From an uncultured Candidatus Saccharibacteria bacterium (lineage in GTDB: Bacteria > Patescibacteriota > Minisyncoccia > Phycocordibacterales > UBA2100), in NCBI GenBank assembly GCA_964398775.1, contig CAYNND010000006.1, positions 3,890-67,889 of the forward strand: a stretch of 64,000 nucleotides of DNA. Direction: 5' to 3'. Position numbers and translations under genes: made by a program. Below are positions 21-57,160 of the stretch, in pieces; the stretch's first letter is position 1; every line of letters starts with the position of its first letter. The notes under the pieces are model-generated. The model saw only the letters and a program-made list of their open reading frames with translations. It was not told where the DNA came from and did not search any database.

Positions 21-791
21 GTGCAGCGTCGCTTCAAAGTCGTGGCTGCGCTCTATCAACAAATATCTGAACCACTCAACAGAAAAAAACTGAATGAAGT
101 AAGTAACGACATCGTGCCACCACGCTTCGATTCAATTCCTGAAGAGCGATTGTTTAGTATCGAAAAGTCTGAGCACGGTATCACGCGCGAACATAGGCAG
201 CGATGGTACTTCTATCCTGATAGTGATGGTGTCACGACGTATCGATATACTGAGCGCACGCTACTCCAAAAAGGTTTTGTGTTGGCGTCGAGCACTGATG
301 ACCCATACAGTGTCTTTACTCGCACGAAGCAGGGCGTAACTGTGACGCTATATATGAATAAGCCGTATACATGGGCGCATGAAGGTAACACACAACTTGA
401 TGAAGTGTTGAGCGGTGTGCCACTCCATGGCGCAGCGCTTCGCTCTCATACACCTCGAGCAGCTGAATTTTTTGCCGCACTTGCTGCGAGTAAGCATGAT
501 GCACTCAGTTTCATCTTCCTTGGTTCGTGTAATGGCACGCAAGACATACAGCGAGCAGCAACTCTGACAAAAGCAGAACATCCAATACATATGATCGCTT
601 CAGAAAAAGAAGGCAAGTTAATCAGCAATGCACACTTGCTTGGGTATATTCTTGATGATGTGCAGCATCGTCGAGTGTTGGTATGGGATACGCTTTGGCA
701 TCGTGCGGGTATGAAAACTAAAGATATGAATTACCAAAAACCTTCACTCAACATTCCACTATTATTCACGTATGCAATGAGGCAAAAATAA
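21..791 (+). CDS. hypothetical protein. Probably 5'-partial: the frame is open back to the window start.
   Basis: Long ORF ends at 791 and is followed by a stem-loop/T-run terminator. No stop codon between position 3 and 21 in frame. No recognisable motif. Confidence 0.45.
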   Translation: MQRRFKVVAALYQQISEPLNRKKLNEVSNDIVPPRFDSIPEERLFSIEKSEHGITREHRQRWYFYPDSDGVTTYRYTERTLLQKGFVLASSTDDPYSVFTRTKQGVTVTLYMNKPYTWAHEGNTQLDEVLSGVPLHGAALRSHTPRAAEFFAALAASKHDALSFIFLGSCNGTQDIQRAATLTKAEHPIHMIASEKEGKLISNAHLLGYILDDVQHRRVLVWDTLWHRAGMKTKDMNYQKPSLNIPLLFTYAMRQK

Positions 792-9536: not shown

Positions 9537-10322
9537 TCACTTCATGCTCTGCACAGCGCGATGTACCTCCTTACTTCTATGTGCTTGCACAAGTTTTACA
9601 AACACAGAACCCGCGATAGCAATTGGTGCAAAGGCATGCACCGCACGGACATCATCTCGTGTGCTGATTCCGAAACCGATACCAATCGGGAGCTGCGTCA
9701 GGGCTCGCACAGTACTCAGGTAGTGTTTGACTCCATCAAGTGTTGCCTGTTTTCCGGTCGTTCCTTGTCGGGAGGTGCAGTATATGAATCCACTTCCAAG
9801 AGGGAGTATTTTTTTGAGGCGAGTTTTCGTAACTCCTGGCGAGATTACGGGGATGATGTGTATGTCATGTGCTCGAGCGGCTGAAACGATGCGAGACCCT
9901 TCCTCAGTATCGAGTGGTATATCAGGGATGATGAGTCCTGCAACGTGACTTGCGGCAGCATCTGCCACAAATGCCTCAATTCCATATCGAAACACTGAAT
10001 TGCCATAACACATGATAACGATAGGTGTTCTCGGGTGTCTGTGCCCAAATACATGTGCCATCTCAAAAGCATCAGCTGGAGCTGGTGCATGCTCGACAGC
10101 TATTTGGCATGCAGCAGCAATTGTTGGTCCGTCAGCCATAGGGTCTGAGAAGGGGATCTGCATTTCAAGGATGTCTGCGCCGCCACGAATCATGTCGTCT
10201 GCAATATGTGCAGAAGCATCTATGTCGGGGAAGCCCACTATCATATGTGTCATCAAGAGCTGCCCTTTTTTCTCTGCGAGGAGTTGCGTGAGGGTATTCA
10301 TATTAGTATCGAGAAAGTTCAT
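9537..10322 (-). CDS. trpA: tryptophan synthase alpha chain
   Basis: GADILEMQIPFSDPMADGPTI and a C-terminal GFGIST motif. 261 aa. Overlaps trpB by 20 nt. Confidence 0.9.
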   Translation of the reverse strand: MNFLDTNMNTLTQLLAEKKGQLLMTHMIVGFPDIDASAHIADDMIRGGADILEMQIPFSDPMADGPTIAAACQIAVEHAPAPADAFEMAHVFGHRHPRTPIVIMCYGNSVFRYGIEAFVADAAASHVAGLIIPDIPLDTEEGSRIVSAARAHDIHIIPVISPGVTKTRLKKILPLGSGFIYCTSRQGTTGKQATLDGVKHYLSTVRALTQLPIGIGFGISTRDDVRAVHAFAPIAIAGSVFVKLVQAHRSKEVHRAVQSMK

Positions 10323-11541
10323 CTGCTAAAAATGCCTTGAATGTGCCATCGCCATGTTCTCTTGCGAGAGTGAACAAATCTTTATCACCTCGACCAGAAA
10401 CATTGACCACAATCGTCTTTGTTTTTGAGAGGGTTGGTGCAAGCTTGAGTGCATACGCAAGCGCATGCGCACTTTCAAGCGCTGGAATAATTCCTTCGTT
10501 TCGCGCAAAAAACTCCACAGCAGCAAGTGCCTCAGTGTCTGTGGCTGTTGTAAGCTCAAGCCGCTTCGCTTCATAGAGCATCGCAAGGTCGGGGCCAAGC
10601 CCTGGATAATCAAGCCCAGCAGCGATACTGTGCGTCGGGGCAATCTGTCCATCTTTTGTTTGTAAGAACAGAGATTTGTATCCTTGGAAGATGCCTGGCT
10701 CTCCTGCAATTTTCCTGCTTGAATGCTCGCCAACTGCATTTCCTCTTCCTCCCGCTTCAACACCAATGAGTCGCACTTTTGTATGAGGAATGAATGCGTC
10801 AAATGCACCGATTGCATTACTACCACCTCCAACGCAAGCGATGACAGCAGCGGGGAGAGTGGCACCAGTGTGTTCTTTGAGTTGTGATTGTATTTCGCGC
10901 CCGATGATTGACTGGAAGTATCTGTTCATTTCAGGATATGGTTTCGGCCCGAGCACAGAACCAATCACATAGTGAGCATCTGCAAGGTGTTCCATCCAAT
11001 ACTTGAGCGCTTCGTTGACCGCATCTTTCAATGTTTTGCTCCCTGATTCAACTGAAATGACACGGGCACCCATGAGTTCCATAAAAAAAACATTTGGGCG
11101 TTGTCTGCGAATATCTTCTGCGCCCATAAACACTACGCACTTCATTCCAAGTTTTGCGGCGACGGTCGCTGTTGCGACGCCGTGCTGACCTGCACCAGTC
11201 TCTGCAATGAGTGTTGTTTTTCCGAGGGTGCGTGCGATGAGTGCTTGTCCAAGGCAGTGTGTAATTTTGTGAGCGCCCGTAATGTTCAGACCTTCATTTT
11301 TTAAATAAATGCGGGCACCTTTGCAATGTTTTGTTGCTTGTGCGGCAAAGGTAAGTGGTGTCGGGCGACCTGAAAAGTGTTTCAGTAGTTGTGCGTACTC
11401 TTTCCGGAATTGGGCTGAGCGCTGCGCTTTCTCAAATGTCTCTACAAGTTCTCTGAGGGGCTCATGCAACATTTCAGGAACATAGGCGCCACCATACTGT
11501 GGGTGTTGATTTTTTTTCCCGCTGACTGAGTGTTTTTTCAT
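10303..11541 (-). CDS. trpB: tryptophan synthase beta chain
   Basis: GRPTPL, the PLP-lysine context NITGAHKITH, ETGAGQHGVATA and GGGSNAIG. 412 aa. Confidence 0.95.
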   Translation of the reverse strand: MKKHSVSGKKNQHPQYGGAYVPEMLHEPLRELVETFEKAQRSAQFRKEYAQLLKHFSGRPTPLTFAAQATKHCKGARIYLKNEGLNITGAHKITHCLGQALIARTLGKTTLIAETGAGQHGVATATVAAKLGMKCVVFMGAEDIRRQRPNVFFMELMGARVISVESGSKTLKDAVNEALKYWMEHLADAHYVIGSVLGPKPYPEMNRYFQSIIGREIQSQLKEHTGATLPAAVIACVGGGSNAIGAFDAFIPHTKVRLIGVEAGGRGNAVGEHSSRKIAGEPGIFQGYKSLFLQTKDGQIAPTHSIAAGLDYPGLGPDLAMLYEAKRLELTTATDTEALAAVEFFARNEGIIPALESAHALAYALKLAPTLSKTKTIVVNVSGRGDKDLFTLAREHGDGTFKAFLADELSRY

Positions 11542-11547
11542 ATCTAT

Positions 11548-12327
11548 TTATACTACTAATGCGGCTTGTAATGAAGCAATATGTTCAGCAGGGTGCGATG
11601 ATTGCAATATTGATGCACCCACGAGTATGCCTCGCGCACCCGCTGCACGTACACGCGACACATCTGCAGCGTTCTGTATTCCAGATTCGCTGATGACTGG
11701 GATTGAGTGCGGGATAGTGGTGATCAGTTGTTCGGTTACCGACAGGTCAATGGTGAGCGTATCAAGGTTTCGATTGTTGATACCAATAATACGCGCGCCG
11801 CAACGGAGGGCTTTCTCCACTTCAAGTTCAGTATGCACTTCTACAAAATATCCAAGATTGCATGCAGTGCACGCTGCGATGCATGCAACAAGTTCTGCCT
11901 CATCAAGTACTGAGGCAATAAGTAAAACAGCATCAGCACTAGTCAACGCCGTTTCGTATATCTGGTAGACATCAACAACAAACTCCTTTCGTAAAATGGT
12001 TTGCGGGGCAAGAGCATGCACTTGCTCAAGCAATTCGAGGCTGCCACCAAAATACTTTGTATCTGTAAGTACTGATATGCAGTTAATCGTTGTTGGTGCA
12101 TACTTTTTCGCGACAGAAAGTGGGTCACTGGTGAGAGTCCCATGAGATGGTGATTTCGGTTTTATCTCACCAATGAGTACTCCTGTACTTTCAAATAGCT
12201 CAAAAAAAGGACGGCGGGGTCTGTACAAGTCGGTACGAGCCTGGAGTGTCTCAAGCGGCAGGCGCGCTTTGAGTGCTGCGACTTCTTCTTTTTTATGTGC
12301 GATGATTTCATCCAAGATGTTTGTCAT
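11548..12327 (-). CDS. trpC: indole-3-glycerol-phosphate synthase
   Basis: GEIKPKSPSHG, INCISVLTD, FVEVHTELE, IGINNRNL. 259 aa. Confidence 0.9.
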   Translation of the reverse strand: MTNILDEIIAHKKEEVAALKARLPLETLQARTDLYRPRRPFFELFESTGVLIGEIKPKSPSHGTLTSDPLSVAKKYAPTTINCISVLTDTKYFGGSLELLEQVHALAPQTILRKEFVVDVYQIYETALTSADAVLLIASVLDEAELVACIAACTACNLGYFVEVHTELEVEKALRCGARIIGINNRNLDTLTIDLSVTEQLITTIPHSIPVISESGIQNAADVSRVRAAGARGILVGASILQSSHPAEHIASLQAALVV

Positions 12328-12971
12328 ACTGTGTGTGCGTGACTGATAAATGTTCTCACTTTCTCCTCATCTTTTTCACCGGTTGCTCTGCAGACCCCTG
12401 AGCGAACGTCGACTGCATACGGGCGCACTTGCGCGATAGCTCCACGCACATTTTCTGGATTTAATCCGCCCGCAAGGATAACTGGAATAGATACCGTTCG
12501 CACGATGTCTGCGCTGACGCTCCAGTCGTGGGTAACCCCAGTCCCGCCGGTGGTGCCTTTCAGTGATGTATCAAGCAGGAGTGCATGTGCTGCAGCTTCA
12601 AAACTCTGTGCTCGTTCCACGCTGCTGCTATCTTGAACGTGGACGACAGCAATAAACTGCACGTAGGGGAATTGCACACGGAGCGTGCTGATATGTGCGG
12701 GAGTAATATGTGAGTGACATTGGACAACTGAAGTACCAGTTACAGATATAAGTGCAGCGATAGACTCAATACTTTCATGTGTGGTCACTATGACGCCCTG
12801 AACAAAGGGGGGCAGAGCAGTGAGTATGTCTCGAGCAGTCTCTGGAGTGACAAAATGCTTCTGTGATTCGGTATGCGGTCCAACAAGAATACCTACAGCG
12901 TCTGCACCGCTCCGTGCTGCAAGGAGTGCTTCATTAACACTTCGGTTACCGCATATTTTTATTCGAGTCAT
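12324..12971 (-). CDS. trpF: phosphoribosylanthranilate isomerase
   Basis: MTRIKICGN...GADAVGIL...LAGGLNPENV. 215 aa. 4-nt overlaps with both neighbours. Confidence 0.85.
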   Translation of the reverse strand: MTRIKICGNRSVNEALLAARSGADAVGILVGPHTESQKHFVTPETARDILTALPPFVQGVIVTTHESIESIAALISVTGTSVVQCHSHITPAHISTLRVQFPYVQFIAVVHVQDSSSVERAQSFEAAAHALLLDTSLKGTTGGTGVTHDWSVSADIVRTVSIPVILAGGLNPENVRGAIAQVRPYAVDVRSGVCRATGEKDEEKVRTFISHAHTV

Positions 12972-13990
12972 AGTGCAGAATATTTTTGTGATGCGCTGAT
13001 AAGTGACTCAAGTGCGTGCAGAGCGCGTCCAGTATCAATACTCTCGTGCGCGTGCGTAATACCTTGCGCGATTGAGTGTGTCACCCCTGCTGCATAGAGT
13101 CCTGCTGCTGCATTGAGTACAACTACGTCTCGCCGCGCACCAGTTTCACCACTGAGGATTGCACGCGTTATAGCTGCGTTTGCCACTGCATCACCACCAG
13201 TGAGGGCTCCTTTCTTCGGTTTTTTAAACCCAAGCTTTTGCGGGTCGATAGTAAGGCGCTTCACACGAGTCCGCTCGACGAGCACCGCATCTGTCGGAGC
13301 ACTCGTGCTCACCTCATCGAGGCCGTCGCGACTGTGAACGATAAGTGCTCGGGCGTATCCAAGTTTTTGAGCAACAGGTGCGAGTCTGTGGAGTCCGTTT
13401 ATGCTTGGGACACCGATGAGCTGTGTTCGTGTTCCTGCTGGGTTTGCAAAGGGGCCAAGGAGGTTAAAGAGTGTTCGTATACCAAGTGTTTTTCTGAGTG
13501 CTCCAACTTGTTTCAGTGCAGGATGAAAGAGTGGAGCAAATAGAAATACAATTCCCACTTCGCGGTACACTGCAGCTGCTAACTCTGGAGTCAGTTGCAC
13601 GTTCACACCTAGCGCTTCAAGTACATCAGCGCTTCCGCATTTGCTACTCGCTGCGCGGTTACCGTGCTTTGCAATGCAAACCCCTGCACCGGCAAGTACA
13701 AATGCTGCAGTTGTTGAAATGTTAAATGTATGTGCGCCGTCGCCACCAGTACCTACGATATCAAATGCGCCTGGAGCGTCGACTCGTTTCATGTGGTCGC
13801 GCAATGCATGAACTGCACCGACAATCTCTTCTGTCGTTTCTCCTTTCATGCGCAGCGCTGTAATGCATGCGCTTGCAAGTGCGCCGTCGACTGTCCCATC
13901 CATCAACGCACTGACAAACGAACGTATCTCTTTTGTAGAACAATCCGTATGTGCTACAAGCTGTGCGAGCAGTTGTTGTGTTGGGTTCAT
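12968..13990 (-). CDS. trpD: anthranilate phosphoribosyltransferase
   Basis: GTGGDGAHTFNISTTAAFVLAGAGVCIAKHGNRAASSKCGSADVLEALGV. 340 aa. Confidence 0.95.
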   Translation of the reverse strand: MNPTQQLLAQLVAHTDCSTKEIRSFVSALMDGTVDGALASACITALRMKGETTEEIVGAVHALRDHMKRVDAPGAFDIVGTGGDGAHTFNISTTAAFVLAGAGVCIAKHGNRAASSKCGSADVLEALGVNVQLTPELAAAVYREVGIVFLFAPLFHPALKQVGALRKTLGIRTLFNLLGPFANPAGTRTQLIGVPSINGLHRLAPVAQKLGYARALIVHSRDGLDEVSTSAPTDAVLVERTRVKRLTIDPQKLGFKKPKKGALTGGDAVANAAITRAILSGETGARRDVVVLNAAAGLYAAGVTHSIAQGITHAHESIDTGRALHALESLISASQKYSAL

Positions 13991-14586
13991 GAAAGTGATT
14001 GTATAAAATTGGTAAGCATCTGTTTGCCGCCTTCAGTTGCAAAAGATTCTGGATGAAACTGTATACCTTCAATTCGTCTTTCCTTGTGGCGAAGTCCCAT
14101 GATATCTCCCTCACTGGTCTCTGCGGTAATACTGAGGCACGCTGGAAGGGTAGAGCGTTCGGCGATAAGTGAATGGTACCGCATGACTTCTATACCTTGC
14201 GGTAGACCCGCAAAAACCCCAGCACTGTCATGGGAGATGGTGCTTGTTTTACCATGCATCGGAAGGGCAGCTCTGACGACATGCCCCCCACAGTAGTGTG
14301 CTATTCCTTGCATGCCGAGACATACGCCGAGAATAGGTACGGGGAAGTCTTCATCTGTCAGTACGTCAGCACACACACCAAAGTATGCACGATCACTCGG
14401 GTCACCTGGCCCGGGGGAGAGCACAACACCGTCGTAGCCGCGCTCTCGAATCTCATCGAGAGTGATGTCTGTATTACGGATGACATCCACACTACCAGTA
14501 CTATTTTTTGCGAGGAAAATCTCTCCAAAGTATTGGTAAAGGTTATACGTAAATGAATCGTAGTTGTCGATGATGAGTAGTTTCAT
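13987..14586 (-). CDS. trpG: anthranilate synthase component II (glutamine amidotransferase)
   Basis: MKLLIIDNYDSFTYNL...ILGVCLGMQ. Class-I GATase triad context. 199 aa. Confidence 0.9.
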   Translation of the reverse strand: MKLLIIDNYDSFTYNLYQYFGEIFLAKNSTGSVDVIRNTDITLDEIRERGYDGVVLSPGPGDPSDRAYFGVCADVLTDEDFPVPILGVCLGMQGIAHYCGGHVVRAALPMHGKTSTISHDSAGVFAGLPQGIEVMRYHSLIAERSTLPACLSITAETSEGDIMGLRHKERRIEGIQFHPESFATEGGKQMLTNFIQSLS

Positions 14587-14591
14587 ACGAT

Positions 14592-15947
14592 TTAGTTAAA
14601 AGTTTCGGTTAGAGTTTTTTTCATTGCAGCAAGTTTACGCACGATTTCTTCGTACTCATGCGCAGGCTCTGAGTCGTACACAATTCCACTACATGTCTGT
14701 GCATACGCGCGCGATTCATTAATAAATACCGAGCGCAGCGCGAGCGCAAACGTGCAGTCGCCGTTGAAACCAAACTGCCCGACGCCACCCCCGTATGGTC
14801 CGCGTGCCTCCTTTTCATTTGCTTCGATAATTTTCAGCGTCTCAACTTTTGGGGTGCCGCATATTGTTCCCATGGGGAAGTTACTCGCGAGTGCCGAAAA
14901 GGCATCTTCTGTAGGCTTGATGATGCCTGAAACTTCACTCGAGAGGTGTTGCACATGCGAAAAGCGTACTACCTTCATAAGGTCTCGCACACGCACCGTG
15001 CCAAACTGTGCGACACGGCCGATATCGTTTCTGTGCAGGTCAACGAGCATCACATGTTCTGCGCGCTCTTTTGGGTCATTCATGAGTGCACGTGCCAGCT
15101 GCTGGTCTTCTGCCTCATCTTTTCCGCGGCGTGTTGTGCCTGCAAGTGGCTTAGTTGTCATTTCTCCATCGCGCAGTGAGAACAATAACTCAGGAGAAGC
15201 ACCAATTATTTTTCGCTTCTGAAAAGAAAGATAATACATGAACGGAGAAGGGTTCACTTCGCGCAGTCGTTCGTAGATGCGTAGTGTGTCACCTGAGATG
15301 GTGTAGTGTGATTTCAAGCCAACTTCGCATTGAAATGTATTTCCAGCACGAATGTGTTCTTTCACTCGACCAACAATCTGTGCATGTTCATCTGCGGTCA
15401 GCTCATCACCATCAAAGGTGACTGCAAGTGGCGCAGGAGTGTATGTGTCAGCGAGTACTTCGTGCACGAGTGACTCACGGTCTCGTTCGTAGCAAAAGTA
15501 GAAGAGTTCATTCGTTGTTTTGTCATAGACGAGTCCATCGTCGTATGCGCCAAAGAGGAAGGTGGGGAAGTCAGGGTGAGTTTTCACAGGGACAGTTGGT
15601 TCAAAGTATTGGGTTGCCTCGTAGCCGAGATATCCCACAAGTCCACCACTGTAGTTTCGTGCAATCGTGTGCTCAGGCATCACTTTCCGGAGCGCGTCGT
15701 ATGCGTTAGTGACTGTATATGCAGTCCCATCAATAGAGAAATCAGTATTATTTCCGACAATGAGATGTTTCGGGTCAAAGCCGATGATTGAATAGCGAGC
15801 AAATCGTCCTTCCTCACCAAGAGACTCAAAAATGAAACTCGTGTCAAAGCGTCGCTCTATCTTTTTGAAAAGTTCAAAGAAATCGATATCGTCTGCAACT
15901 TTTCTGTACTGTGGTTTCTTGCCGAGTATGATGCGTGGTGGGTTCAT
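14592..15947 (-). CDS. trpE: anthranilate synthase component I
   Basis: Chorismate-binding C-terminus GTICGTPKVETLKIIEANEKEARGPYGGGVGQFGFNGDCTFALALR. 451 aa. Confidence 0.9.
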   Translation of the reverse strand: MNPPRIILGKKPQYRKVADDIDFFELFKKIERRFDTSFIFESLGEEGRFARYSIIGFDPKHLIVGNNTDFSIDGTAYTVTNAYDALRKVMPEHTIARNYSGGLVGYLGYEATQYFEPTVPVKTHPDFPTFLFGAYDDGLVYDKTTNELFYFCYERDRESLVHEVLADTYTPAPLAVTFDGDELTADEHAQIVGRVKEHIRAGNTFQCEVGLKSHYTISGDTLRIYERLREVNPSPFMYYLSFQKRKIIGASPELLFSLRDGEMTTKPLAGTTRRGKDEAEDQQLARALMNDPKERAEHVMLVDLHRNDIGRVAQFGTVRVRDLMKVVRFSHVQHLSSEVSGIIKPTEDAFSALASNFPMGTICGTPKVETLKIIEANEKEARGPYGGGVGQFGFNGDCTFALALRSVFINESRAYAQTCSGIVYDSEPAHEYEEIVRKLAAMKKTLTETFN

Positions 15948-16200
15948 AGAAGATATTAAAAATCGCCCTTATAAAATGACAAACATTCATTTTATAAGGG
16001 CGATTTTCACCGCGGTACCACCTTATTTGTTGCTCATCGACTCCATACTGCTATGACATCGATTATCTCTGTTACGGGAGCTCCCGAGTATTCACTTGTG
16101 CAACTACTACCATGCGCATGAAGCGCGATAGCGACCCAGTCTCCCGTACAGGTACTCCTGCGAGAGATCGCTATCAATGGCTATATCTATACATACTCTA
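15948..16200 (-). promoter_or_regulatory. T-box riboswitch leader (tRNA-Trp-responsive) with intrinsic terminator, upstream of trpE
   Basis: On the minus strand: conserved T-box sequence AAAUAAGGUGGUACCGCGGUG (+ coords about 16003-16025). Immediately followed by a long hairpin AAAAUCGCCCUUAUAAAAUGA...UCAUUUUAUAAGGGCGAUUUUU. Upstream Stem-I-like hairpin GAUAGCGA...AGAC-UGG-G-UCGCUAUC carries a UGG Trp specifier plus purine. AGAGA (GA-motif) upstream. -35/-10 candidate TTGACT...TATAGA further upstream. Confidence 0.75.
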
Positions 16201-16276
16201 TAGGGAGCAGCCCATGGAGTCAAGGTGCTCACAGGCTCGGTTTGTATTCACAGAAAGATAACGGTATGGTTCTTGT

Positions 16277-16981
16277 ATGAAAATCCATCGTTTCTTTATT
16301 GCAGATGACATCGTGGGTGCAACCTATGTCATCCAAGATGAAGATTTGGTGCATCAGATTACTCGTGTACTGCGTATCGGAACAGGGGAGCGCATTGCGC
16401 TTGTTGTTGGCGGTGGGAAACAGTTCCTTGCTGAGGTCGTTGAGACTGAGAAGCGTTTTGTAACAGTGCAGGTTTTGGAGGAACAGCAGGTCTGGGTCCC
16501 GAAACAACGCATAATTGTATGTCTCTCTGCGATACGGAAAGAGCGTTTTGAGTGGGCACTCGAAAAATGTACTGAAGTTGGTGTATCAGCAGTTGTGCCA
16601 CTTATTGCCGCTCGCAGTGAGCGTGGTGTTGTGCAACATGAGCGTGCGCAACGTATCATGCAAGAAGCAGCTGAGCAGTGTGGGCGTGGCGACATGCCCG
16701 AGCTTGGCACACCAGTCACGCTCGGAGATATGCTTCCAGAAGTTGGAGACGCATGTGTTGTCGCGTGTGATATGGGGGGCGGGCACTTCTCAGATGTGCC
16801 ACACATCGATACCGCAGATGTAATCTATCTCTGCATTGGCCCAGAAGGTGGGTGGAATGATGATGAGCGTGTATTGCTCCAATCCCATAATGCTGCTTTT
16901 GTATCCCTTGGCCCGACGGTACTGCGTGCAGAGACTGCAGCTGTCGCTGCGTGTGTTCTTGTACAACATGTTGTAGAATAG
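16277..16981 (+). CDS. rsmE: 16S rRNA (uracil1498-N3)-methyltransferase
   Basis: RFF...LRL...SERSV...AAEQCGR...GPEGGW...LGPTVLRAETAAV. 234 aa. Confidence 0.8.
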   Translation: MKIHRFFIADDIVGATYVIQDEDLVHQITRVLRIGTGERIALVVGGGKQFLAEVVETEKRFVTVQVLEEQQVWVPKQRIIVCLSAIRKERFEWALEKCTEVGVSAVVPLIAARSERGVVQHERAQRIMQEAAEQCGRGDMPELGTPVTLGDMLPEVGDACVVACDMGGGHFSDVPHIDTADVIYLCIGPEGGWNDDERVLLQSHNAAFVSLGPTVLRAETAAVAACVLVQHVVE

Positions 16982-24373: not shown

Positions 24374-25636
24374 ATGTCTAAGCGTACTTTCTTATTGGTA
24401 GTACTGTCTTGCGCGATCCCTGTTGCACTCTTTGCCTGGACAGGACCATCAGCTGCACCACCAGGAAACAATGTCTCAGCTCCAGTGAACATCGGTTCAG
24501 CCGATCAGTTCAAACCAGGTATCATGGGGGCAAATATCATCAATATTTACGGCTCAAGTCAGTATCTTAGTTTTGGGAACACCACGGGAGCGAGCGGATT
24601 TGGTATCAGAAATAATGCAGGCTATTTAGAGTTCAAAAATAGTGGTGGTGCATGGAACCGCTTCGGCCCACCATTTACTGCAGGCTTAAGTGTGAGTGGT
24701 ACTCTCGGTACGCTCTATGGTGGCTCATATCGTATCAATGCAAACGGTGACAACGCAACAGGTGGAGGAATACTCATCGCAGACGATGGAGGCTTCTTTG
24801 ACTATAATGACGGGTGGGTTACATTTAACGGTTCAACAGGCATCAAGATTGCAGGAAATAATGGTGCGGCAAGTCAGGGCAATCAGCTACAGGTGAATGG
24901 AAGAATCGATGCAAATTCCTATGGAGGTAACGGGGGAATCATCTCATCAGGAAATTATGGTGGAACAGGAACCGCTGCATATTTTCCCTCAGGCATCTGG
25001 GCAAATGGTGCAAGTTCATGGCTCTATGGGACCATCTATACAAATGGACAGGTATACGATACTGCGGTTGGTACAGTGCGCGATGCGGGGGGTGGCTGGA
25101 TTCGTACCTATGGTGCAACTGGGTGGTACTCACAAACGTATGGAGGTGGCTGGCATATGTCCGACACGACATGGCTCAGAGCATACGGGAACAAAAATGT
25201 CTATACACCAGGCACAATCAGAGGTGATGCATCGCTCGACTCAAACAATCTCTGCGACCCTGCACACTCATATTGCTCAACGATATATGGTTTGTGGTAT
25301 GTGCATACGTACTACTATTCTGACAAACGGTTGAAAAAAGATATTAAAGATATGTCAGATGATTATGGTCTTGGAGCAATCATGAAGCTACGCCCTGTGC
25401 AATTTACATGGAAAGACAAAACTTCTTCAGAAAAACTTGGTCCACAAATTGGTCTCATCGCACAAGAAGTTGAACAAGTGATTCCTGAGGCTGTGGATAC
25501 TATGCCAAGTAAGGAAATTACTAACGAAGATGGCACGAAAGAAACAATTGAAAATCCAAAATCAGTCACGCATCAGAACCTTGTTGTACCGCTGATTAAG
25601 TATGCACAAGACTTAAAAGCACTCAACGATGTGTAA
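24374..25636 (+). CDS. secreted fibre protein with the conserved N-module and a C-terminal S74-type intramolecular chaperone (tail-fibre/endosialidase auto-processing) domain
   Basis: N-terminus FAWTGPSAAPPGNNVSAPVNIG...FGNTTGASGFGIRNNAG. Gly/Asn-rich middle. C-terminus YYSDKRLKKDIKD...LRPVQFTWKD...GLIAQEVEQVIPEAV matches the SDxRLKxNI / GxIAQEV..V.PE.V signature of the phage tail-spike chaperone domain. Confidence 0.75.
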   Translation: MSKRTFLLVVLSCAIPVALFAWTGPSAAPPGNNVSAPVNIGSADQFKPGIMGANIINIYGSSQYLSFGNTTGASGFGIRNNAGYLEFKNSGGAWNRFGPPFTAGLSVSGTLGTLYGGSYRINANGDNATGGGILIADDGGFFDYNDGWVTFNGSTGIKIAGNNGAASQGNQLQVNGRIDANSYGGNGGIISSGNYGGTGTAAYFPSGIWANGASSWLYGTIYTNGQVYDTAVGTVRDAGGGWIRTYGATGWYSQTYGGGWHMSDTTWLRAYGNKNVYTPGTIRGDASLDSNNLCDPAHSYCSTIYGLWYVHTYYYSDKRLKKDIKDMSDDYGLGAIMKLRPVQFTWKDKTSSEKLGPQIGLIAQEVEQVIPEAVDTMPSKEITNEDGTKETIENPKSVTHQNLVVPLIKYAQDLKALNDV

Positions 25637-34739: not shown

Positions 34740-34776
34740 GTTGCACTTGGTCTGAGAATTGTTAGTCTTTCCCTAT

Positions 34777-36441
34777 ATGTCTATCCGTTCTCGCATAGAG
34801 ACTGCACTCAAAGAAAAGGTTGCTGCACTTGGGTTTCTTGATGTGACAATTACACTCACACACCCAGATGTACTCGCATACGGTGATTTTGCTACATCTA
34901 TCGCGCTTGCGCTCAGTAAGCAGGCAGGCAAACCACCGCGTGCTGTTGCAGAAGACATTGTACGCGACCTTACAGTAGATGGTGTTGTGCGTATTGAAAT
35001 TGCAGGCCCTGGGTTTATAAATTTCCACTTGAGTCCTGACTTTTTCGCCGCGTCACTTAATGAGATATCTACTGCGGCTGTGTGGGGGAGTACTCAAGCG
35101 ACTGAGAAAAAAGAGATTGTTGTTGAATACACTGACCCGAATCCATTCAAGGCATTTCATATCGGGCACTTGATGAGTAATGCAATCGGCGAATCAATCG
35201 CACGCCTGTTTGAGAGTCAGGGCGTGACTGTCTATCGAGCAAACTACCAAGGTGATGTCGGTATACACATTGCCTGTGCATTGTGGGGTATCAAACAGCT
35301 CGGTATTGATGCAGGTAACGGCGCTGAGCTCGGGCGCGCGTACAGTCACGGTGCGACAGCATACAAGAATGATCCGGCGGCAAAAGAAGAAATCAATGCA
35401 ATAAACAAAATTGTCTACGATAAGACTGACGAAACACTTAATGAACAATATCGTATCGGAAGACAGGCATCACTCGACCTCTTTGAGAAACTCTACGCGC
35501 TCCTAGGTACAAAATTCAATCGCTATTTCTTTGAGTCAGAGCTTGCAGAACATGGAAAGGAGATAGTACTTGCGCATCCACATGTATTTGAAGATTCAGA
35601 TGGTGCAAAAGTGTACAAGGGTGAAAAAGTCGGGTTACATACGAGAGTGTTTTTAAGCGCAAAAGGTTTGCCAATCTATGAGACCAAAGAGCTTGCGCTT
35701 GCATATGAAAAACAAAAGTATTTTCCAAACGCCGAGACCTTTTATGTCGTAACTGCAAACGAAATCACTGAATACTATAAAGTGGTCATCGCAGCAATGA
35801 AAGAGATAGACCCAGTGATAGCAGCAAAGATGCACCATGTACCGCATGGCATGATGCGACTCCCTGACGGGAAAATGTCCTCACGCACTGGGAACGTCAT
35901 TACTGGTGAGTCATTGCTAGCTGATTTGATAGAGGCGGCAAAGGCGCGTGCGGCGGAGTCGCGCGCGGAAAACCCCCAGCAGCTTGCTGAAGAAATCGCC
36001 GTAGCGGCGATTAAGTTTCAAGTACTCAGACAGGGAACAGGGAAAGATATTATTTTTGAGCAAGAAAAAGCACTTTCTCTTGAAGGTGATTCCGGTCCAT
36101 ATATTCAGTACGCACACGCGCGGTGCACTTCAATCCTCCATAAAGGGAAAGAAGCTGGATTTCTCCCTGCTGCAACAGTACATACTGACTTGAGTGATTT
36201 AGAGCGCACACTCTATCGATTCCCCGATGTAGTAGCGCGAGCAGCAGAGAACCTTGAGCCGCACCATGTTGCTCATTTTCTGACACATGTTGCAGGGCTC
36301 TTCAACAGTTGGTACGCACAAGTGCAAGTGCTCGATGACAGTGATGCGGTCCCACATAAACTTGCGATAGTGAGAGCGGTGCAACAGACACTCGCACAAG
36401 GGCTCCATTTCCTTGGTATAAAAGCACCTGCTCAGATGTAA
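34777..36441 (+). CDS. argS: arginyl-tRNA synthetase
   Basis: Class-I HIGH (FHIGHLMS) and KMSK-like (GKMSSRTGN). DALR anticodon-binding C-terminus ending in Met. About 554 aa from the internal start. Confidence 0.8.
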   Translation: MSIRSRIETALKEKVAALGFLDVTITLTHPDVLAYGDFATSIALALSKQAGKPPRAVAEDIVRDLTVDGVVRIEIAGPGFINFHLSPDFFAASLNEISTAAVWGSTQATEKKEIVVEYTDPNPFKAFHIGHLMSNAIGESIARLFESQGVTVYRANYQGDVGIHIACALWGIKQLGIDAGNGAELGRAYSHGATAYKNDPAAKEEINAINKIVYDKTDETLNEQYRIGRQASLDLFEKLYALLGTKFNRYFFESELAEHGKEIVLAHPHVFEDSDGAKVYKGEKVGLHTRVFLSAKGLPIYETKELALAYEKQKYFPNAETFYVVTANEITEYYKVVIAAMKEIDPVIAAKMHHVPHGMMRLPDGKMSSRTGNVITGESLLADLIEAAKARAAESRAENPQQLAEEIAVAAIKFQVLRQGTGKDIIFEQEKALSLEGDSGPYIQYAHARCTSILHKGKEAGFLPAATVHTDLSDLERTLYRFPDVVARAAENLEPHHVAHFLTHVAGLFNSWYAQVQVLDDSDAVPHKLAIVRAVQQTLAQGLHFLGIKAPAQM

Positions 36442-40591: not shown

Positions 40592-40668
40592 GACGACAAC
40601 CCCCGAACGGGGGTTGTTTCGTGATGGGGGTGCACCAATGTCCATTTTTTGCTACTATCCGTAGCATT

Positions 40669-43605
40669 ATGGCAGATACAAAGCCCCAACAAGCGGCAAA
40701 AGATATAGCTCCTGTTAAAAGCGAGACAGCACTTCGAGAAGAAGCACTCGTGCAGTACTGGAAGGAGCACAACATCTTTGAACGTTCTATTGAGAAGAAG
40801 GCACCGAAGGGAGACTTCGTCTTTTATGATGGACCACCGTTTGCAACAGGGCTGCCGCACATGGGGCACTTGCTTGCCTCATCATATAAAGATGCTGTTG
40901 GTCGCTACAAGACGATGCAAGGCTATCGTGTGCCGCGCCGATGGGGGTGGGACTGTCATGGACTTCCAGTTGAATCACTTGTTGAGAAAAAACTTGGACT
41001 GAAAACAAAAAAAGATATTGAGGTGCTTGGTGTTGAGAAGTTCAACGCAGAAGCGCGTGCATCCGTGACGCAGTTCGTCTCTGACTGGGAATGGTATGTA
41101 GACCGTATCGGCCGCTGGGTAGATTTCAAAAATTCATACAAAACAATGGACAACTCCTATATGGAGTCTGTCTGGTGGGCACTCAAGCGCTTGCATGAGA
41201 AGAAGCTGTTATATGAAGGTAACCGCGTCTTGATGTACTGTACGCATTGTGAGACGCCGCTCGCGAAGGCTGAGATTCAGATGGATAACACATATAAAGA
41301 TGTCATCGATGAAGCGGTAACTGTGAAGTTCAAGGTAAAAGAGCCGACAAAACATGGGCTTCCGGAAAACACATACATCCTCGCATGGACGACGACGCCG
41401 TGGACTTTGCCAGGGAACGTGGGATTGGCAGTCGGGGCTGAGATTGAATATGTTGTCGTGAAACAAGGTGCAGAACAATTTGTACTTGCAAAAGAGCTTC
41501 TAGAAAAGGTGCTTGGTAGTGATACTGCAATTACCGCTACCATAAAAGGTTCTGACCTTGTCGGCATCAAATACGAACCACTCTACACAGTCGCGGCAGT
41601 TGAGGCGCACACAGGAAAGAAGCATGAAGTACTCGCAGCTGATTTCGTCACGACAACTGATGGTACAGGAGTCGTGCACACTGCTGTTATGTACGGTGAA
41701 GACGACTACAATCTCGGAAAAAAGGAAGGACTACCAATGGTACAGCTCCTCACACAAAACGGTCACTACAACGAGAAAGCACCTGAGCTTGTGCGTGACA
41801 TGTTTTACAAAAAAGGAGGACGATACGTGCTTGAAGATTTGGAGAAGCGAGCGCTCGTGTTTAAAAAAGAAAACTATAACCACAGCTACCCACACTGCTA
41901 TCGCTGCGGCACGGCACTCATCTATAACGCTGTCTCTTCATGGTTCTTGGGCATCAATTCAATCCCTGAAGGTGGTACAAAGACCGTGAAAGAGCGCATG
42001 CTTGAAGAGAACAAGGAGATTGGATGGGTACCTGGACACCTCCGCGATGGGCGCTTCAATAACATCCTCGAAGGTGCGCCTGATTGGACGATTTCTCGAA
42101 ATCGTTTTTGGGCAACACCGCTTCCAATATGGCGCTGTACTGGATGTTCTGATATTGCTGTCATCGGATCAGTTGAGGAGCTCAGAACGCGGGCACAACA
42201 ACCAGTTCCAGAAGGGCAGGATTTGCACCGACCATACGTTGACGCATTCACGCTGACCTGCGAAGGGTGTCATGCAGAAATGAAGCGAACCCCTGAAGTG
42301 GTGGACTGTTGGGTAGAGTCAGGGTCAATGCCATTTGCAGAACTTTCATATCCACGCGAAAACAAAGACTTGTTCGAGAAACGTTTTCCTGGAGATTTCA
42401 TCACCGAGTACATCGCACAGACGCGCACATGGTTCTACTACACACATGCAATGGGCGTGATGGTCTTCGATACAAAAGCGTTTAAGAATGTGACTTCGAC
42501 AGGAACAATCCTTGCGGCAGATGGAGAGAAGATGAGTAAGAGTAAGGGTAACTATACAGACCCGAAAATAAATCTCGACCTATATGGAGCAGATGCATTG
42601 CGCTTCTACCTCATGGGTTCACCGGTGATGCAGGCCGAGGACACCAACTTCCGTGACGACGATTTGAAGGAGACACACAGTCGTATCATCAACATGCTCT
42701 GGAATTCGTACACCTTTTATTCGATGTATGCGAAAGATGTTCCTCAGGGAATTGATGTCACAAAATCACCAAATGTCCTTGATAGATGGATTCTCTCTCG
42801 ACTTTCTCAGGTGATTACTGAAGTAACGGTGTCACTTGATGGCTATGAGACGACCCCAGCATGCCGCTCTATCCGCAGTTTCGTAGAAGACTATTCAACG
42901 TGGTATTTGCGCCGCTCACGTGAACGCATCAAGGAAGAAGGGGATGATAAAGCATATGCACTTGCAACGATGCGTACGACACTCCTCACGCTTTCAAAAG
43001 TGATTGCTCCTGTCATGCCGTTTATTGCTGAGAGTATGTACCAAGGACTGAAAGGAAATGAAGAGAGTGTGCATCTTGATGTGTGGCCGCAACCACTCAT
43101 GACCGTGAGTACAACTCTGCATGATGATATGCAGGCAGCGCGAGTTGTAACTTCAGCAGCGCTCGAGGCACGCTCAGCAGCGAAGATAAAGGTACGACAA
43201 CCACTTTCTCGCCTTGTTGTCTCAAGTGAGCATTCACTTGCAAAAAGTTTTGACAAGGAGTCGCTCCTTGAAATCATCGCATCAGAAGTAAACGTGAAAG
43301 AGGTAACAATGGGGGACACAGGCACTGACATGGTTATGCTTGATGTTGTGGTGACAGCTGAACTCCAGGCAGAAGGATTTCTTCGTGATCTCATCCGCGC
43401 CGTGCAAGATTTCCGTAAACAAAAAGGCCTCAACCCAAGTGACCTTCCAACCCTCGCGCTCATGGTGACGGGTGACTCAAGGGTATTTGTAGAAACGTAC
43501 CGAGATGAGCTCATTAAGGCAACACACTTGAAGGACATTACATTTGTAGAGACAGCAGAAACGACAGTCACTGCCGGTACTTTGTCATTTGGTCTTTCCC
43601 TCTAG
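40669..43605 (+). CDS. ileS: isoleucyl-tRNA synthetase
   Basis: HMGH and KMSKSKGN class-I motifs. WTISRNRFWATPLPIW editing/CP1 motif. About 978 aa. Start set to the Met after the upstream terminator. Confidence 0.8.
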   Translation: MADTKPQQAAKDIAPVKSETALREEALVQYWKEHNIFERSIEKKAPKGDFVFYDGPPFATGLPHMGHLLASSYKDAVGRYKTMQGYRVPRRWGWDCHGLPVESLVEKKLGLKTKKDIEVLGVEKFNAEARASVTQFVSDWEWYVDRIGRWVDFKNSYKTMDNSYMESVWWALKRLHEKKLLYEGNRVLMYCTHCETPLAKAEIQMDNTYKDVIDEAVTVKFKVKEPTKHGLPENTYILAWTTTPWTLPGNVGLAVGAEIEYVVVKQGAEQFVLAKELLEKVLGSDTAITATIKGSDLVGIKYEPLYTVAAVEAHTGKKHEVLAADFVTTTDGTGVVHTAVMYGEDDYNLGKKEGLPMVQLLTQNGHYNEKAPELVRDMFYKKGGRYVLEDLEKRALVFKKENYNHSYPHCYRCGTALIYNAVSSWFLGINSIPEGGTKTVKERMLEENKEIGWVPGHLRDGRFNNILEGAPDWTISRNRFWATPLPIWRCTGCSDIAVIGSVEELRTRAQQPVPEGQDLHRPYVDAFTLTCEGCHAEMKRTPEVVDCWVESGSMPFAELSYPRENKDLFEKRFPGDFITEYIAQTRTWFYYTHAMGVMVFDTKAFKNVTSTGTILAADGEKMSKSKGNYTDPKINLDLYGADALRFYLMGSPVMQAEDTNFRDDDLKETHSRIINMLWNSYTFYSMYAKDVPQGIDVTKSPNVLDRWILSRLSQVITEVTVSLDGYETTPACRSIRSFVEDYSTWYLRRSRERIKEEGDDKAYALATMRTTLLTLSKVIAPVMPFIAESMYQGLKGNEESVHLDVWPQPLMTVSTTLHDDMQAARVVTSAALEARSAAKIKVRQPLSRLVVSSEHSLAKSFDKESLLEIIASEVNVKEVTMGDTGTDMVMLDVVVTAELQAEGFLRDLIRAVQDFRKQKGLNPSDLPTLALMVTGDSRVFVETYRDELIKATHLKDITFVETAETTVTAGTLSFGLSL

Positions 43606-48831: not shown

Positions 48832-50205
48832 ATGACAACGTCAATGGAAAATATCATCTCACTCTGCAAGCGCAGAGGCTTTATATACCAAGGTTCTGAA
48901 ATATACGGTGGACTTGCTGGGACCTGGGACTATGGGCCACTTGGCGTAGCGCTGAAGAAAAATATTGAAAATCTCTGGTGGAAACGGTTTGTCCTTGACC
49001 GCGAGAATATCTACGGTGTCGATGCGGCGATCCTTATGAACCAAGATGTCTGGAAGGCGAGTGGTCACGTCGGCGGTTTCTCTGACCCGCTCACTGAGGA
49101 TTTGAAGACAAAGAAGCGCTATCGTGCAGATCACCTTCTTGAAGAAAACGGCATCGACCCGCGTGGCATGAACCTCGAGAAGATGGACGCTGTCATCAAG
49201 GAAAAGGGACTCAAGAGTCCCGAAGGAAACCCACTTGGTGATGTGCGTCAGTTCAACATGATGTTCAAGACGCATGCAGGTGCAACACAAGATGATGCAT
49301 CCATCACGTACCTCCGACCTGAGACAGCGGGCGGTATGTTTGTAAATTTTAAAAACATCATAGACTCATTCCACCCGAAATTACCGTTTGGTATGGCGCA
49401 AGTTGGAAAAGCGTTCCGCAATGAAATTGCGCCCCGCGATTTTATATTCCGTGTTCGTGAACTTGAGCAAATGGAGATTGAGTTTTTCGTAAAGCCTGAT
49501 GACTGGAAACCACACTTTGAAAGTTTCCAAAAAGAGCAGGTTGAGTTCCTCACCCAAGACCTCGGTCTGAACCCTTCGCACATCCATCAGGTGGAAATTG
49601 CAGCAGAGGACAGAGCGCACTACTCAAAGTGGTCAGTCGATACTGAGTTCGATTTCCCGATGGGACAGAAGGAGCTCCTTGGTCTTGCGTACCGTACTGA
49701 CTTCGACCTCAAGAGTCACACTGTTGCGAGTAAGGTGGACCTTTCATACTATGATGAGGAGACAAAGGAGCGATTTACACCACACTGTGTAGAGCCTACA
49801 TTCGGTCTCGGTCGTCTTATGCTCGCAGTGCTCTCAGATGCGTATTGTGAGGATGAGCAAAATGGCGAGAAGCGTGTGTACCTCAAGTTTGATAAAAAAG
49901 TTGCACCTGTTAAGGCAGCTGTCTTTCCGCTCCTGAAGAATAAGCCTGAGCTTGTCACAAAAGCACGCGAAGTGTATGGCGCATTGAAGAGACAGATTCC
50001 ACAGGTGATGTGGGATGACAATGGAAATATCGGTAAACGCTACCGACGGCAAGATGAGATAGGGACACCCTATTGTATCACTGTGGATTTTGATACGCTC
50101 GGGGAAAATCCTGAACATGCTGACACTGTCACGGTCCGTGACCGTGATACGGGTAAGCAAGAGCGAGTGCCGATTGCAAAACTAAAAGACTGGATAATAA
50201 ACTAA
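48832..50205 (+). CDS. glyQS: glycyl-tRNA synthetase, alpha2 dimeric type
   Basis: GFIYQGSEIYGGLAGTWDYGPLGVALKKNIENLWW...ETAGGMFVNF...FRNEIAPRDF: class-II motifs of GlyRS. 457 aa. Confidence 0.9.
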   Translation: MTTSMENIISLCKRRGFIYQGSEIYGGLAGTWDYGPLGVALKKNIENLWWKRFVLDRENIYGVDAAILMNQDVWKASGHVGGFSDPLTEDLKTKKRYRADHLLEENGIDPRGMNLEKMDAVIKEKGLKSPEGNPLGDVRQFNMMFKTHAGATQDDASITYLRPETAGGMFVNFKNIIDSFHPKLPFGMAQVGKAFRNEIAPRDFIFRVRELEQMEIEFFVKPDDWKPHFESFQKEQVEFLTQDLGLNPSHIHQVEIAAEDRAHYSKWSVDTEFDFPMGQKELLGLAYRTDFDLKSHTVASKVDLSYYDEETKERFTPHCVEPTFGLGRLMLAVLSDAYCEDEQNGEKRVYLKFDKKVAPVKAAVFPLLKNKPELVTKAREVYGALKRQIPQVMWDDNGNIGKRYRRQDEIGTPYCITVDFDTLGENPEHADTVTVRDRDTGKQERVPIAKLKDWIIN

Positions 50206-53020: not shown

Positions 53021-54454
53021 ATGAAACATTTCTATATTACAACTACGATTCCATATGTAAACGCAGCACCGCATATTGGTTTTGCACTTGAAATCACTCA
53101 GGCAGATGCAATCGCCCGCTATAAGCGGCTCATGGGATACGATGTTTTTTTCAACTTTGGTTCCGATGAGCATGGGCAAAAGATTTGGCAAAATGCACAA
53201 GACGCTGGTGTTGACCCGCAAGCATATACTGATGAATACGCAGCAAAGTTTCAAGCGCTGAAAGAGAAATTGAACCTTACATATGATGCGTTCATTCGCA
53301 CAACAGACAGTAAGCATAAAGCTGCTGCCCAGGAGATGTGGCGTCGCTGTCTCGCAAAAGGTGACATCTACAAGAAAAACTATGAAGTAAAATACTGTAT
53401 CGGGTGTGAACTCGAAAAGACTGACTCAGAACTTATCGATGGGAAATGCCCACTGCATCCAAACAAGCCACTCGAGTTGCGCAGTGAAGAAAACTATTTC
53501 TTCAAACTCTCTGCATATCAAGACAAGCTTAAGGAGTTGTATACGCGGACAGACTTCGTTGTTCCTGATTTTCGGCTGAACGAAATACGTTCGCTCATCG
53601 ATGGCACCGGGCTGCAAGATTTTTCAATATCACGACTCAAGACAAAAATGCCATGGGGTGTTCCGGTGCCTGATGATGAGTCGCAGGTCATGTATGTCTG
53701 GTTCGATGCGCTGGTCAACTATATTTCTACGCTTGATTGGCCACAGGATGACGCGCGCTTTCGCCACTTCTGGACAGGGACCGCTGACAGTATCCAAGTC
53801 GCAGGGAAGGATCAAGTACGACAACAGGCATGCATGTGGCAAGCGATGCTTATGTCAGCAGAATTGCCACTCACCGGGCAGATATTCATACACGGTTTTA
53901 TCATGGGTGCAGGTGGACAGAAGATGAGCAAGTCATTGGGCAATGTCATCGACCCTATTACGATTGTCGATGAATATGGCGTAGATGCGTTGCGCTACTT
54001 CCTCCTGCGCCACATACACCCCACAGAAGACTCAGAATTCACCATGGAGCTCTTTAAGGAGGCATACACTGCAGGACTCACAAACGGCATCGGTAACCTC
54101 ACAGCGCGTATTATGAAGCTTGCAGAGCAGTATCTGAGTGCTCCGATAGAACATCCAGCGCCTGCAGGCTTTCCAGCTGAATTTACTACTGCACTCGAGC
54201 AATATCAGTTTAACGCTGCGGCTGAGTACGTCTGGGGACGCATTCAGGCACTCGACCAGAAGATTCACACTGAAGAGCCGTTCAAAGTTGTGAAAGTTGA
54301 TGCGGCTCGTGGTGCGGAGATGATTGCTGGACTTGCACGTGAGCTCTACGCTATTGCGCGACTTTTGCAGCCATTACTGCCGCAGACAAGCGATACGATT
54401 AAGGCAGCAGTACTCGCAAATAAGAAGCCAGAGAATATGTTCCCACGTAAATAG
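53021..54454 (+). CDS. metG: methionyl-tRNA synthetase
   Basis: [12 protein letters not shown] (HIGH), [12 protein letters not shown], and a CxxC...C pair in the connective peptide. 477 aa. Confidence 0.9.
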
Positions 54455-56692: not shown

Positions 56693-57160
56693 TTATGCCT
56701 TCGGATTCTTCATGTATCCTGCAGCTGCACCAGCGAGTACAGTAGTACCGACGCTAATCCAGAATGCGATGTTTGAAAGGATGCCAGTCAAGAATGGACC
56801 AATTTGGTCAGTCTGACCTTGGACAACAGCCTGCGGCACGATTTGTATGAGTGTAATTGCCATACTCATGACCGCGAAGAATGCTCCAAGGATAAGGCCA
56901 TTCTCCCAGCCAGCCTTCTGGTGAGAGAAGTACCAGAGAGCAGTGTAGTAGACAACAGCTGCTGCGATAGCAAGTGTAACTACCTGACCAATCATGTCAG
57001 GACTAGGAAGCTTTGAGATGATGAATCCCAAGATGCCACCCAAGATACCGATAATTGCGTTGTTGAATGCGTATGCTGCAAATCCAGCTTTAAGTGCTTT
57101 AACGAAGTTGAGTTCCACGATTAATATGTTAACTGATAACGTGTTCAGTAAGTATATCAT
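56693..57160 (-). CDS. hypothetical 4-TM membrane protein
   Basis: 155 aa, 4 hydrophobic helices. Confidence 0.45.
   Translation of the reverse strand: MIYLLNTLSVNILIVELNFVKALKAGFAAYAFNNAIIGILGGILGFIISKLPSPDMIGQVVTLAIAAAVVYYTALWYFSHQKAGWENGLILGAFFAVMSMAITLIQIVPQAVVQGQTDQIGPFLTGILSNIAFWISVGTTVLAGAAAGYMKNPKA

Follow-up and report, generated by a model that had tools for sequence, protein, structure and literature searches.

Trp-specific T-boxes on trp operons are well known, including those of the Firmicutes. The distal platform of Stem I has been called essential for T-boxes acting on transcription, as it captures the tRNA fast enough (PMC7583486, section 6.2), whereas an intermediate or "ultrashort" Stem I without platform has been ascribed to the slower translational T-boxes of Actinobacteria, in which Stem II and the 21-nt Stem IIA/B pseudoknot become essential (PMC7583486). 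The class II T-boxes of ileS in Mycobacterium and Nocardia belong to this group (Sherwood et al., 2015; PDB 6UFG and 6UFM, both as presented in PMC7583486), and in TBDB the use of the class II model has been confined to Actinobacteria and class I hits (PMC7778990). The minimal glyQS T-boxes of Bacillus and Geobacillus, which are transcriptional, keep a long, platform-bearing Stem I and do without Stem II and the IIA/B pseudoknot. Outside the T-boxes, premature termination in the trp leader according to tryptophan supply is brought about by TRAP in Bacillus subtilis and by trpL in E. coli and Sinorhizobium. The leader described here is, with a probability that we put at roughly 0.85, a tRNA-Trp-sensing T-box that controls trpEGDFCBA by transcription antitermination.

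The leader locus is the intergenic region between rsmE and trpE, 329 nt at positions 15948-16276 of a 64-kb window (the whole stretch of 64,000 nucleotides that was analysed), and coincides exactly with the interval under study. It is read on the minus strand, to which all leader features given below belong. The regulated operon trpE-G-D-F-C-B-A follows at 9537-15947 on the same strand, with the trpE ATG at 15947 and NCBIfam matches for 7/7 genes, while rsmE diverges from it on the plus strand (16277-16981). In the gene order of 9537-15947 trpF precedes trpC, and the pathway is complete. To our knowledge, members of the CPR/Patescibacteria are generally considered to lack amino-acid biosynthesis; the closest counterparts of the trp genes and of the leader in the window are all in MAGs labelled CPR/Patescibacteria. 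Neither rsmE nor the next two genes were found in the trp flanks of the relatives, and given these non-syntenic flanks the trp operon and its T-box leader may move as a cassette. The window is therefore assigned to the CPR only putatively, from the similarity of its operon and leader. Elsewhere in the window, an ORF of 420 aa (24374-25636, plus strand) combines a C-terminal Peptidase_S74 (endosialidase chaperone) domain with a Shufflon_N-like region, an architecture typical of phage tail fibres or pilus-tip proteins, and the large ORFs nearby (848, 525, 1027 and 652 aa) show no family match or a single minor domain match.

Relatives were gathered by a TrpE scan of species-representative genomes and metagenomes. 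The closest TrpE proteins are 57-70% identical to that of the window, with one at 95%, and stem nearly all from MAGs labelled Patescibacteria/CPR, including Kaiser-, Nomura-, Pace-, Levy-, Roizman- and Daviesbacteria, Saccharibacteria and the "Parcubacteria group"; the next tier consists of SAR116 alphaproteobacteria at 52-56% identity. Some loci (L002, L006, L007, L011 and others) carry a CPR-type trp operon under labels such as "uncultured Gammaproteobacteria", "Methylomirabilota" or "Nanoarchaeota archaeon", and the T-box leader is also present on the implausibly labelled contigs L002, L007 and L011; these labels probably reflect placeholder or mis-binned taxonomy. In 64 of 162 related loci, nhmmer and a corrected pattern, the pattern GGNTGGNACC being unsuitable, place a T-box core no more than 500 nt upstream of trpE; removal of duplicates and unusable entries left 42 usable non-redundant leaders. 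Two sub-architectures are found among the leaders. Group A, of which 19 leaders were aligned, includes the window, L083, L009, L010, L019 and L111, and most of its named members are Parcubacteria-type; Group B, likewise with 19 aligned leaders, is mostly Microgenomates-type. Pair counts were taken from alignments cut at fixed offsets from invariant motifs, since full-length MAFFT alignments misregistered the 3' strand of Stem I and Stem II; RNAalifold independently recovers the same helices. On one metagenome contig (L084), a match to the SAM (S-box) riboswitch (78-204, plus strand; 35.2 bits against a gathering score of 44.4, E = 3.6e-4) lies ~420 nt upstream of the trp T-box.

A sigma-70-like promoter (TTGACT, 17 nt, TAGAGT; 16195-16223) was found upstream of the leader by consensus scan, and an equivalent TTGACA-17-TAnnnT ends 8-13 nt ahead of the leader anchor in 15/19 Group A leaders. 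Given this spacing, the transcript would begin just 5' of the Stem I domain, and since the conserved promoter adjoins the leader in these 15 of 19 as well as in the window, a longer Stem I could not be accommodated upstream. The 253-nt leader folds better than 200/200 shuffles (z = -5.35).

In MFE folds, Stem I measures 43 nt (16130-16172) and is devoid of a distal platform. It consists of a lower helix (AGCGA/UCGCU), an upper helix (UCUCUCG/CGGGAGA) and an apical hairpin CAGG-AGUA-CCUG, so that its cap is a plain 4-bp hairpin with an AGUA loop. The specifier bulge CUGGG (5 nt, 16135-16139) contains the codon UGG at 16138-16136 followed by the purine G at 16135, in agreement with the preliminary description, which had placed UGG-G on the 3' side of a Stem-I-like helix (here 16172-16130) just before the closing stem. 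The same arrangement of a lower 5-bp and an upper 7-bp helix around an unpaired N-U-G-G-G bulge is found across the 19 Group A leaders, where 97.6% of the cells are paired and double changes occur in 9/12 pairs; the covariation of 0.626 compares with 0.232 in shuffles (0/500 reach it), and slid registers give at most 0.144. UGGG is invariant in 19/19 Group A leaders and UUGGA in the 19 Group B leaders. In the latter, Stem I is "ultrashort", a fully (100%) paired helix of 4 bp in which 4/4 pairs show double changes and whose 9-11-nt terminal loop carries the invariant UUGGA. A distal Stem I platform was found in no leader of Group A or Group B. Three relatives have a Stem I with an apical insertion (L019:2197-2280, L095:1234-1317 and L108:1089-1174); the inserted ~50 nt, CCCAGUUUUGGGACGUAGAUGCAACUUCUCAAAACUGGAG, are identical in two leaders of unrelated assemblies and related in the third, and in L095, the best-scoring of the three, the insertion gave no alignment to the platform motifs AGAGA/GGUGNRA. 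A perfect palindrome, CCGCCAG(C/T)(C/T)GGCGG, which forms a stable hairpin, occurs in 9 copies in 788 kb of related loci (L003:2143, L011:2126, L016:1791, L028:605, L108:1282, L111:1028, L116:1389, L131:1360 and L141:1295), 9/9 of them within a trp T-box leader or a short way upstream of one, at structurally varying sites, namely the Stem I apex, the linker ahead of the T-box and the Stem III apex. Variants with other loops are present in L003, L008, L091 and L101, and the window has no copy.

The Stem I domain appears to be closed by an outer helix, P0, formed between the 5' strand GCCAU (16177-16181) and the 3' strand AUGGU (16109-16113), the pairing running from 16177-16181 to 16113-16109. 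It is moderately supported, with 88% of the cells paired and a covariation of 0.34 against 0.24 in shuffles, a value that 2/500 shuffles reach, and it corresponds to the K-turn C-stem of relatives. Between P0 and Stem I lies a UGAU junction (16173-16176), the 5' half of a K-turn/GA motif that reads UUGAU in most of Group A and in all of Group B. In the window the 5' UGA is present at 16176-16174, and the 3' GA of the K-turn is replaced by the insertion of a 13-nt hairpin, GCGC-UUCAU-GCGC, between Stem I and the 3' strand of P0 (16114-16126, MFE), giving a three-way junction. L083, L010, L019, L088, L093 and L122 have an equivalent small hairpin, which is missing in the K-turn-type leaders L111, L135, L094 and L091; a canonical K-turn can be read by eye in L111 (GUC-UUU-GA-U...U-GA-GGC). 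The base of Group B leaders is of the K-turn type as well, with a covarying C-stem, and with a GUU bulge and tandem G-A positions assigned by eye.

Downstream of the Stem I domain follows a Stem II-like hairpin, AGUAG-UUGCACAAGUGA-AUACU (16087-16108), with the loop U-G-C-R-N-N-A-G-U-G, which is invariant in Group A. It is 89.5% paired across the 19 Group A leaders with double changes in 6/6 pairs and a covariation of 0.983 against 0.307 in shuffles (0/500), and it aligns to the Rfam Stem II in L010; its UGCR..AGUG loop differs from the S-turn consensus GAA/AGUA, and no purine string is evident. Directly adjacent is the Stem IIA/B pseudoknot CGGGAGCUCCCGUAACAGAGA (16066-16086), composed of IIA (CGG/CCG) and IIB (CUC/GAG) and containing an F-box-like CCGUAA at 16077-16072. 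IIA is invariant in the 19 Group A leaders, and IIB is 97.4% paired with two covarying pairs (U-A to C-G and C-G to U-A). A compact IIA/B pseudoknot of 21 nt that holds the F-box is a feature of Stem II-containing T-boxes (PMC7583486), and the pseudoknot in the window has the same length. Stem III (AUCGAU...GUCGAU, 16036-16063) shows double changes in 5/6 pairs across the 19 Group A leaders and precedes a conserved GAG (16035-16033), kept in most of these leaders and replaced by GAA or AAG in three. An ORF of 13-15 codons, M(RM)VVVAQVNTRELP, at 16074-16118 extends over both the Stem II-like hairpin and the pseudoknot; it lacks Trp codons and is probably fortuitous. Two relatives, L127 (1343-1400) and L131 (1340-1420), seem by eye to be reduced further to a K-turn, a Stem I that is short or ultrashort and carries UUGGA, ~25-35 nt of linker, the T-box and a terminator, with no Stem II, pseudoknot or obvious Stem III, and RF00230 leaves them blank at E <= 1.

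An Rfam scan of the window at the gathering threshold returned no T-box and matched only a tRNA-His. At a permissive threshold, RF00230 matches 16186-15993 with 36.3 bits (E = 3.3e-6 locally and 1.9e-4 window-wide) and is the sole significant Rfam match to the leader, mapping the K-turn region, the IIA/F-box, the T-box and the antiterminator. Hence, the T-box model match expected by the preliminary description was obtained as regards significance, and failed as regards the gathering score of 93; a hit below threshold formally speaks against the assignment, yet the threshold is an inadequate measure here because the deficit stems from the naturally truncated Stem I. The alignment to the model is good at the T-box, at the antiterminator and at the IIA hairpin, CCGU included, while 75 Stem I positions of the model are replaced by 5 nt, and it is these ~75 missing positions that account for the low score. 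Leaders of relatives score 26-55 bits, and 8/27 loci scanned remain undetected at E <= 1, which leaves the whole leader family below the curated threshold. The permissive scan revealed no second T-box in the 64-kb window, and no T-box signal was obtained at this threshold for argS, ileS, the dimeric-type glyS and metG (34759-36441, 40621-43605, 48832-50205 and 53021-54454, all on the plus strand), so that predicted T-box control within this stretch is limited to the trp operon. A core-like match at 57032-57041 was rejected as a chance occurrence, as it sits inside a coding ORF.

Features that count against a T-box acting by antitermination are the sub-threshold RF00230 score, the missing distal interdigitated T-loop platform, the missing 3' GA of the K-turn and a Stem II-like loop off the S-turn consensus. 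The low score and the loss of 75 Stem I model positions could be taken as signs of decay, the leader then being what is left of a canonical T-box that no longer functions, and the operon being constitutively terminated or otherwise regulated. However, the same truncated architecture recurs across 42 non-redundant leaders, whose specifier never varies and whose helices all show compensatory changes, and even the relative whose TrpE is 95% identical to that of the window (L083) has compensated substitutions in Stem I and in Stem III, the latter reading ACGAG/CUCGU. A decaying relic would not covary, which makes such a remnant very improbable.

The tryptophan specificity suggested by the operon can be followed at both ends of the presumed tRNA. 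The preliminary description had proposed a Trp-specific T-box on the trp operon, and the seven downstream trp genes together with the invariant UGG plus purine in the relatives support this assignment. The alternative that the bulge specifies another amino acid deserves mention since UGGG and UGGA read one base later give the glycine codons GGG and GGA, and since the bulge of the window begins with the leucine codon CUG. Yet a U precedes GG in 38/38 leaders, UGG is without exception followed by a purine, in keeping with the T-box rule, whereas GGR is followed by a varying base, the C of CUG is unconserved (C, U or A), and the regulated genes make tryptophan. At the other end, the T-box bulge reads UGGC in 34 leaders and UGGU in the window and 8 others; neither A nor G occurs at the variable position of UGGN. 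Bacterial tRNA-Trp has the discriminator G73, and tRNA-Gly has U73. As UGGA never occurs in the bulge, pairing with the U73 of tRNA-Gly is not possible, while UGGC and UGGU are compatible with G73 or A73 and therefore fit tRNA-Trp. A specifier other than Trp is accordingly the most remote of the explanations considered here. In the organisms concerned, the UGGU of the window (16017-16020) and of 8 relatives implies either that the discriminator of tRNA-Trp is A73, as in the archaeal/eukaryotic type, or that G73 and U form a wobble pair. No tRNA-Trp gene was found in the 64-kb window or in the related trp loci, and the related loci are free of any tRNA gene. TRAP attenuation and leader-peptide attenuation were both considered and rejected, since the leader contains neither a TRAP-type triplet array nor a small ORF with Trp codons; the earlier preference for a T-box over these two mechanisms thus stands.

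The T-box sequence reported in the preliminary description is present on the minus strand as AAAUAAGGUGGUACCGCGG at 16028-16010, and the mutually exclusive antiterminator that it called for can be drawn. With the 3' arm of the terminator excluded, the leader folds into AUAAGG[UGGUACC]GCGGU-GAAA-AUCGCCCUUAU (15994-16026; -8.2 kcal/mol), in which helix A1 (AUAAGG/CCUUAU) and helix A2 (GCGGU/AUCGC) flank the 7-nt bulge UGGUACC at 16020-16014. The antiterminator matches the RF00230 consensus, the T-box sequence is kept in all relatives, and in the 19 Group A leaders most of the element is invariant, and the ends of its helices covary. The long perfect terminator hairpin announced just downstream is likewise in place: 21 perfect base pairs and 2 further ones form a 23-bp stem with a 7-nt loop (15957-16009, MFE, -29.7 kcal/mol), built from the arms AAAAUCGCCCUUAUAAAAUGA (16007-15987) and UCAUUUUAUAAGGGCGAUUUU (15979-15959) and followed by a U-run at 15962-15958. 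The 3' half of the antiterminator doubles as the 5' arm of this hairpin, with an overlap of 11-16 nt, so that the two folds exclude each other, and the difference between -29.7 and -8.2 kcal/mol makes OFF the default state.

That this hairpin terminates transcription is the read-out that we consider highly probable, provided that the leader is a tRNA-Trp-responsive T-box. The same T-box might instead act on translation, or on both levels, as in the Actinobacterial ileS leaders, with the hairpin, which ends 10 nt ahead of the trpE AUG, blocking 30S loading on an mRNA without an SD sequence. Translational T-boxes typically have a short or ultrashort Stem I without platform (PMC7583486), 2-25 nt separate the U-run from the trpE start in the window and in most leaders, and an SD-like motif at -16 to -4 of trpE was found neither in the window nor in most of the 43 leaders. 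However, ~40/43 leaders possess a hairpin of -25 to -42 kcal/mol that overlaps the antiterminator and is directly followed by 4-7 U's, and U's right after a GC-rich stem are the signature of an intrinsic terminator and unneeded for sequestration. Moreover, the hairpin is 50-147 nt away from trpE in ~10 relatives, and its 3' arm contains no functionally spaced SD, the AAGGG being 15-20 nt from the AUG. The U-runs, the ~10 distant hairpins and the general lack of SD-like motifs hence favour transcription termination over SD sequestration, and a translational or dual read-out is unlikely. After the terminator of the window, an A/U-rich stretch (15948-15965) runs directly into the AUG.

What has been observed is the operon, the set of sequence elements, conserved and covarying among the leaders, and two folds that exclude each other; on this basis, control by transcription antitermination can be pictured as follows. 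The start of transcription would lie a few bases upstream of a compact decoding domain, which comprises the short Stem I, the Stem II-like hairpin and the 21-nt IIA/B pseudoknot. The leader would bind tRNA-Trp, whose CCA anticodon would pair with the UGG codon, followed by its purine, in the 5-nt bulge on the 3' side of Stem I. If the tRNA is uncharged, its 3' NCCA could pair with UGGU of the 7-nt bulge and stabilise the otherwise weak antiterminator (-8 kcal/mol), whereupon RNA polymerase would read into trpE; with a charged tRNA, or with none, the much stronger terminator (23 bp and U5, -30 kcal/mol) would form and transcription would stop 10 nt before the start codon. In this scheme the read-out is presumed to be transcriptional rather than translational. 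By analogy with the Actinobacterial ileS T-boxes, Stem II and the pseudoknot may compensate for the missing elbow-binding platform.

With class I T-boxes (RF00230) the leader shares the 7-nt bulge UGGNACC, the competition of antiterminator and terminator, a specifier on the 3' side of Stem I whose codon precedes a purine, Stem III, a IIA/B pseudoknot that holds an F-box-like CCGUAA, and the agreement between codon and amino acid of the operon. It differs in a Stem I of 43 nt as opposed to ~85-110 nt, in the lack of the AG bulge, the distal loop and the interdigitated T-loop platform, in a specifier placed in a one-sided 5-nt bulge in lieu of an S-turn internal loop, in a K-turn that has become a three-way junction in the window, in family scores of 26-55 bits against 93, and in hosts labelled CPR/Patescibacteria. 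The Actinobacterial ileS T-boxes resemble it in their intermediate or ultrashort Stem I without elbow platform, in a specifier near or in the terminal loop (as in the Group B relatives), and in a Stem II region and a 21-nt IIA/B pseudoknot after the K-turn, both of which buttress the codon-anticodon duplex in ileS. In contrast to these, the leader ends in a hairpin and U-run terminator and not in an SD sequestrator, its specifier is Trp and not Ile, it precedes a biosynthetic operon and not an aminoacyl-tRNA synthetase gene, it belongs to another lineage, and its Stem II-like hairpin of ~22 nt has a UGCR..AGUG loop in place of an S-turn and a string of five purines. Compared with glyQS, which is also transcriptional, the window represents the opposite combination of elements; L127 and L131 resemble glyQS in having only Stem I, a short linker and the discriminator. 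Unlike TRAP and trpL, the leader contains no (G/U)AG array and no leader ORF with Trp codons, the sensor being the predicted tRNA-binding RNA itself. The leader thus has the core features of a T-box and is a putative tRNA responder, and it is filed under neither of the described classes because it scores below the class I gathering threshold, lacks the class I platform and has no SD sequestrator of class II.

What appears unusual is the union of an Actinobacterial-style decoding domain with a classical terminator, a Trp specifier and a biosynthetic operon in a different lineage. The preliminary description had mentioned neither the lack of the distal platform nor the Stem II-like hairpin and IIA/B pseudoknot nor the occurrence of the family in CPR-type genomes. 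A search of literature full texts returned no paper joining T-boxes with the candidate phyla radiation, Patescibacteria, Parcubacteria or Saccharibacteria, an absence that is no proof of novelty, and a 2024 perspective on Patescibacteria treats riboswitches only as prospective tools. Whether these leaders constitute an undescribed T-box class, spread across CPR/Patescibacteria, that senses tRNA-Trp and terminates transcription without an elbow platform, with a Stem I of 43 nt at the longest and, at the shortest, a 4-bp helix whose loop carries the codon, is a proposition that we regard as evenly balanced. As the family is missed at the curated threshold, T-box censuses based on RF00230 would under-count it.

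In dozens of independent genomes, a Stem I without platform is combined with a terminator, which bears on the view that transcriptional T-boxes require the platform (PMC7583486, section 6.2). If the proposed reading is true, the platform would be no general requirement for co-transcriptional T-box function, and the leader, a small natural RNA of ~230 nt, makes this requirement directly testable. As far as the searchable literature shows, it would be the first natural riboswitch-type regulator described in Patescibacteria. The leader marks a complete tryptophan pathway, putatively under regulation, in a lineage commonly held to be incapable of amino-acid synthesis, and, if the reading holds, at least some of the ultra-small, "auxotrophic" bacteria would make and regulate their own tryptophan.
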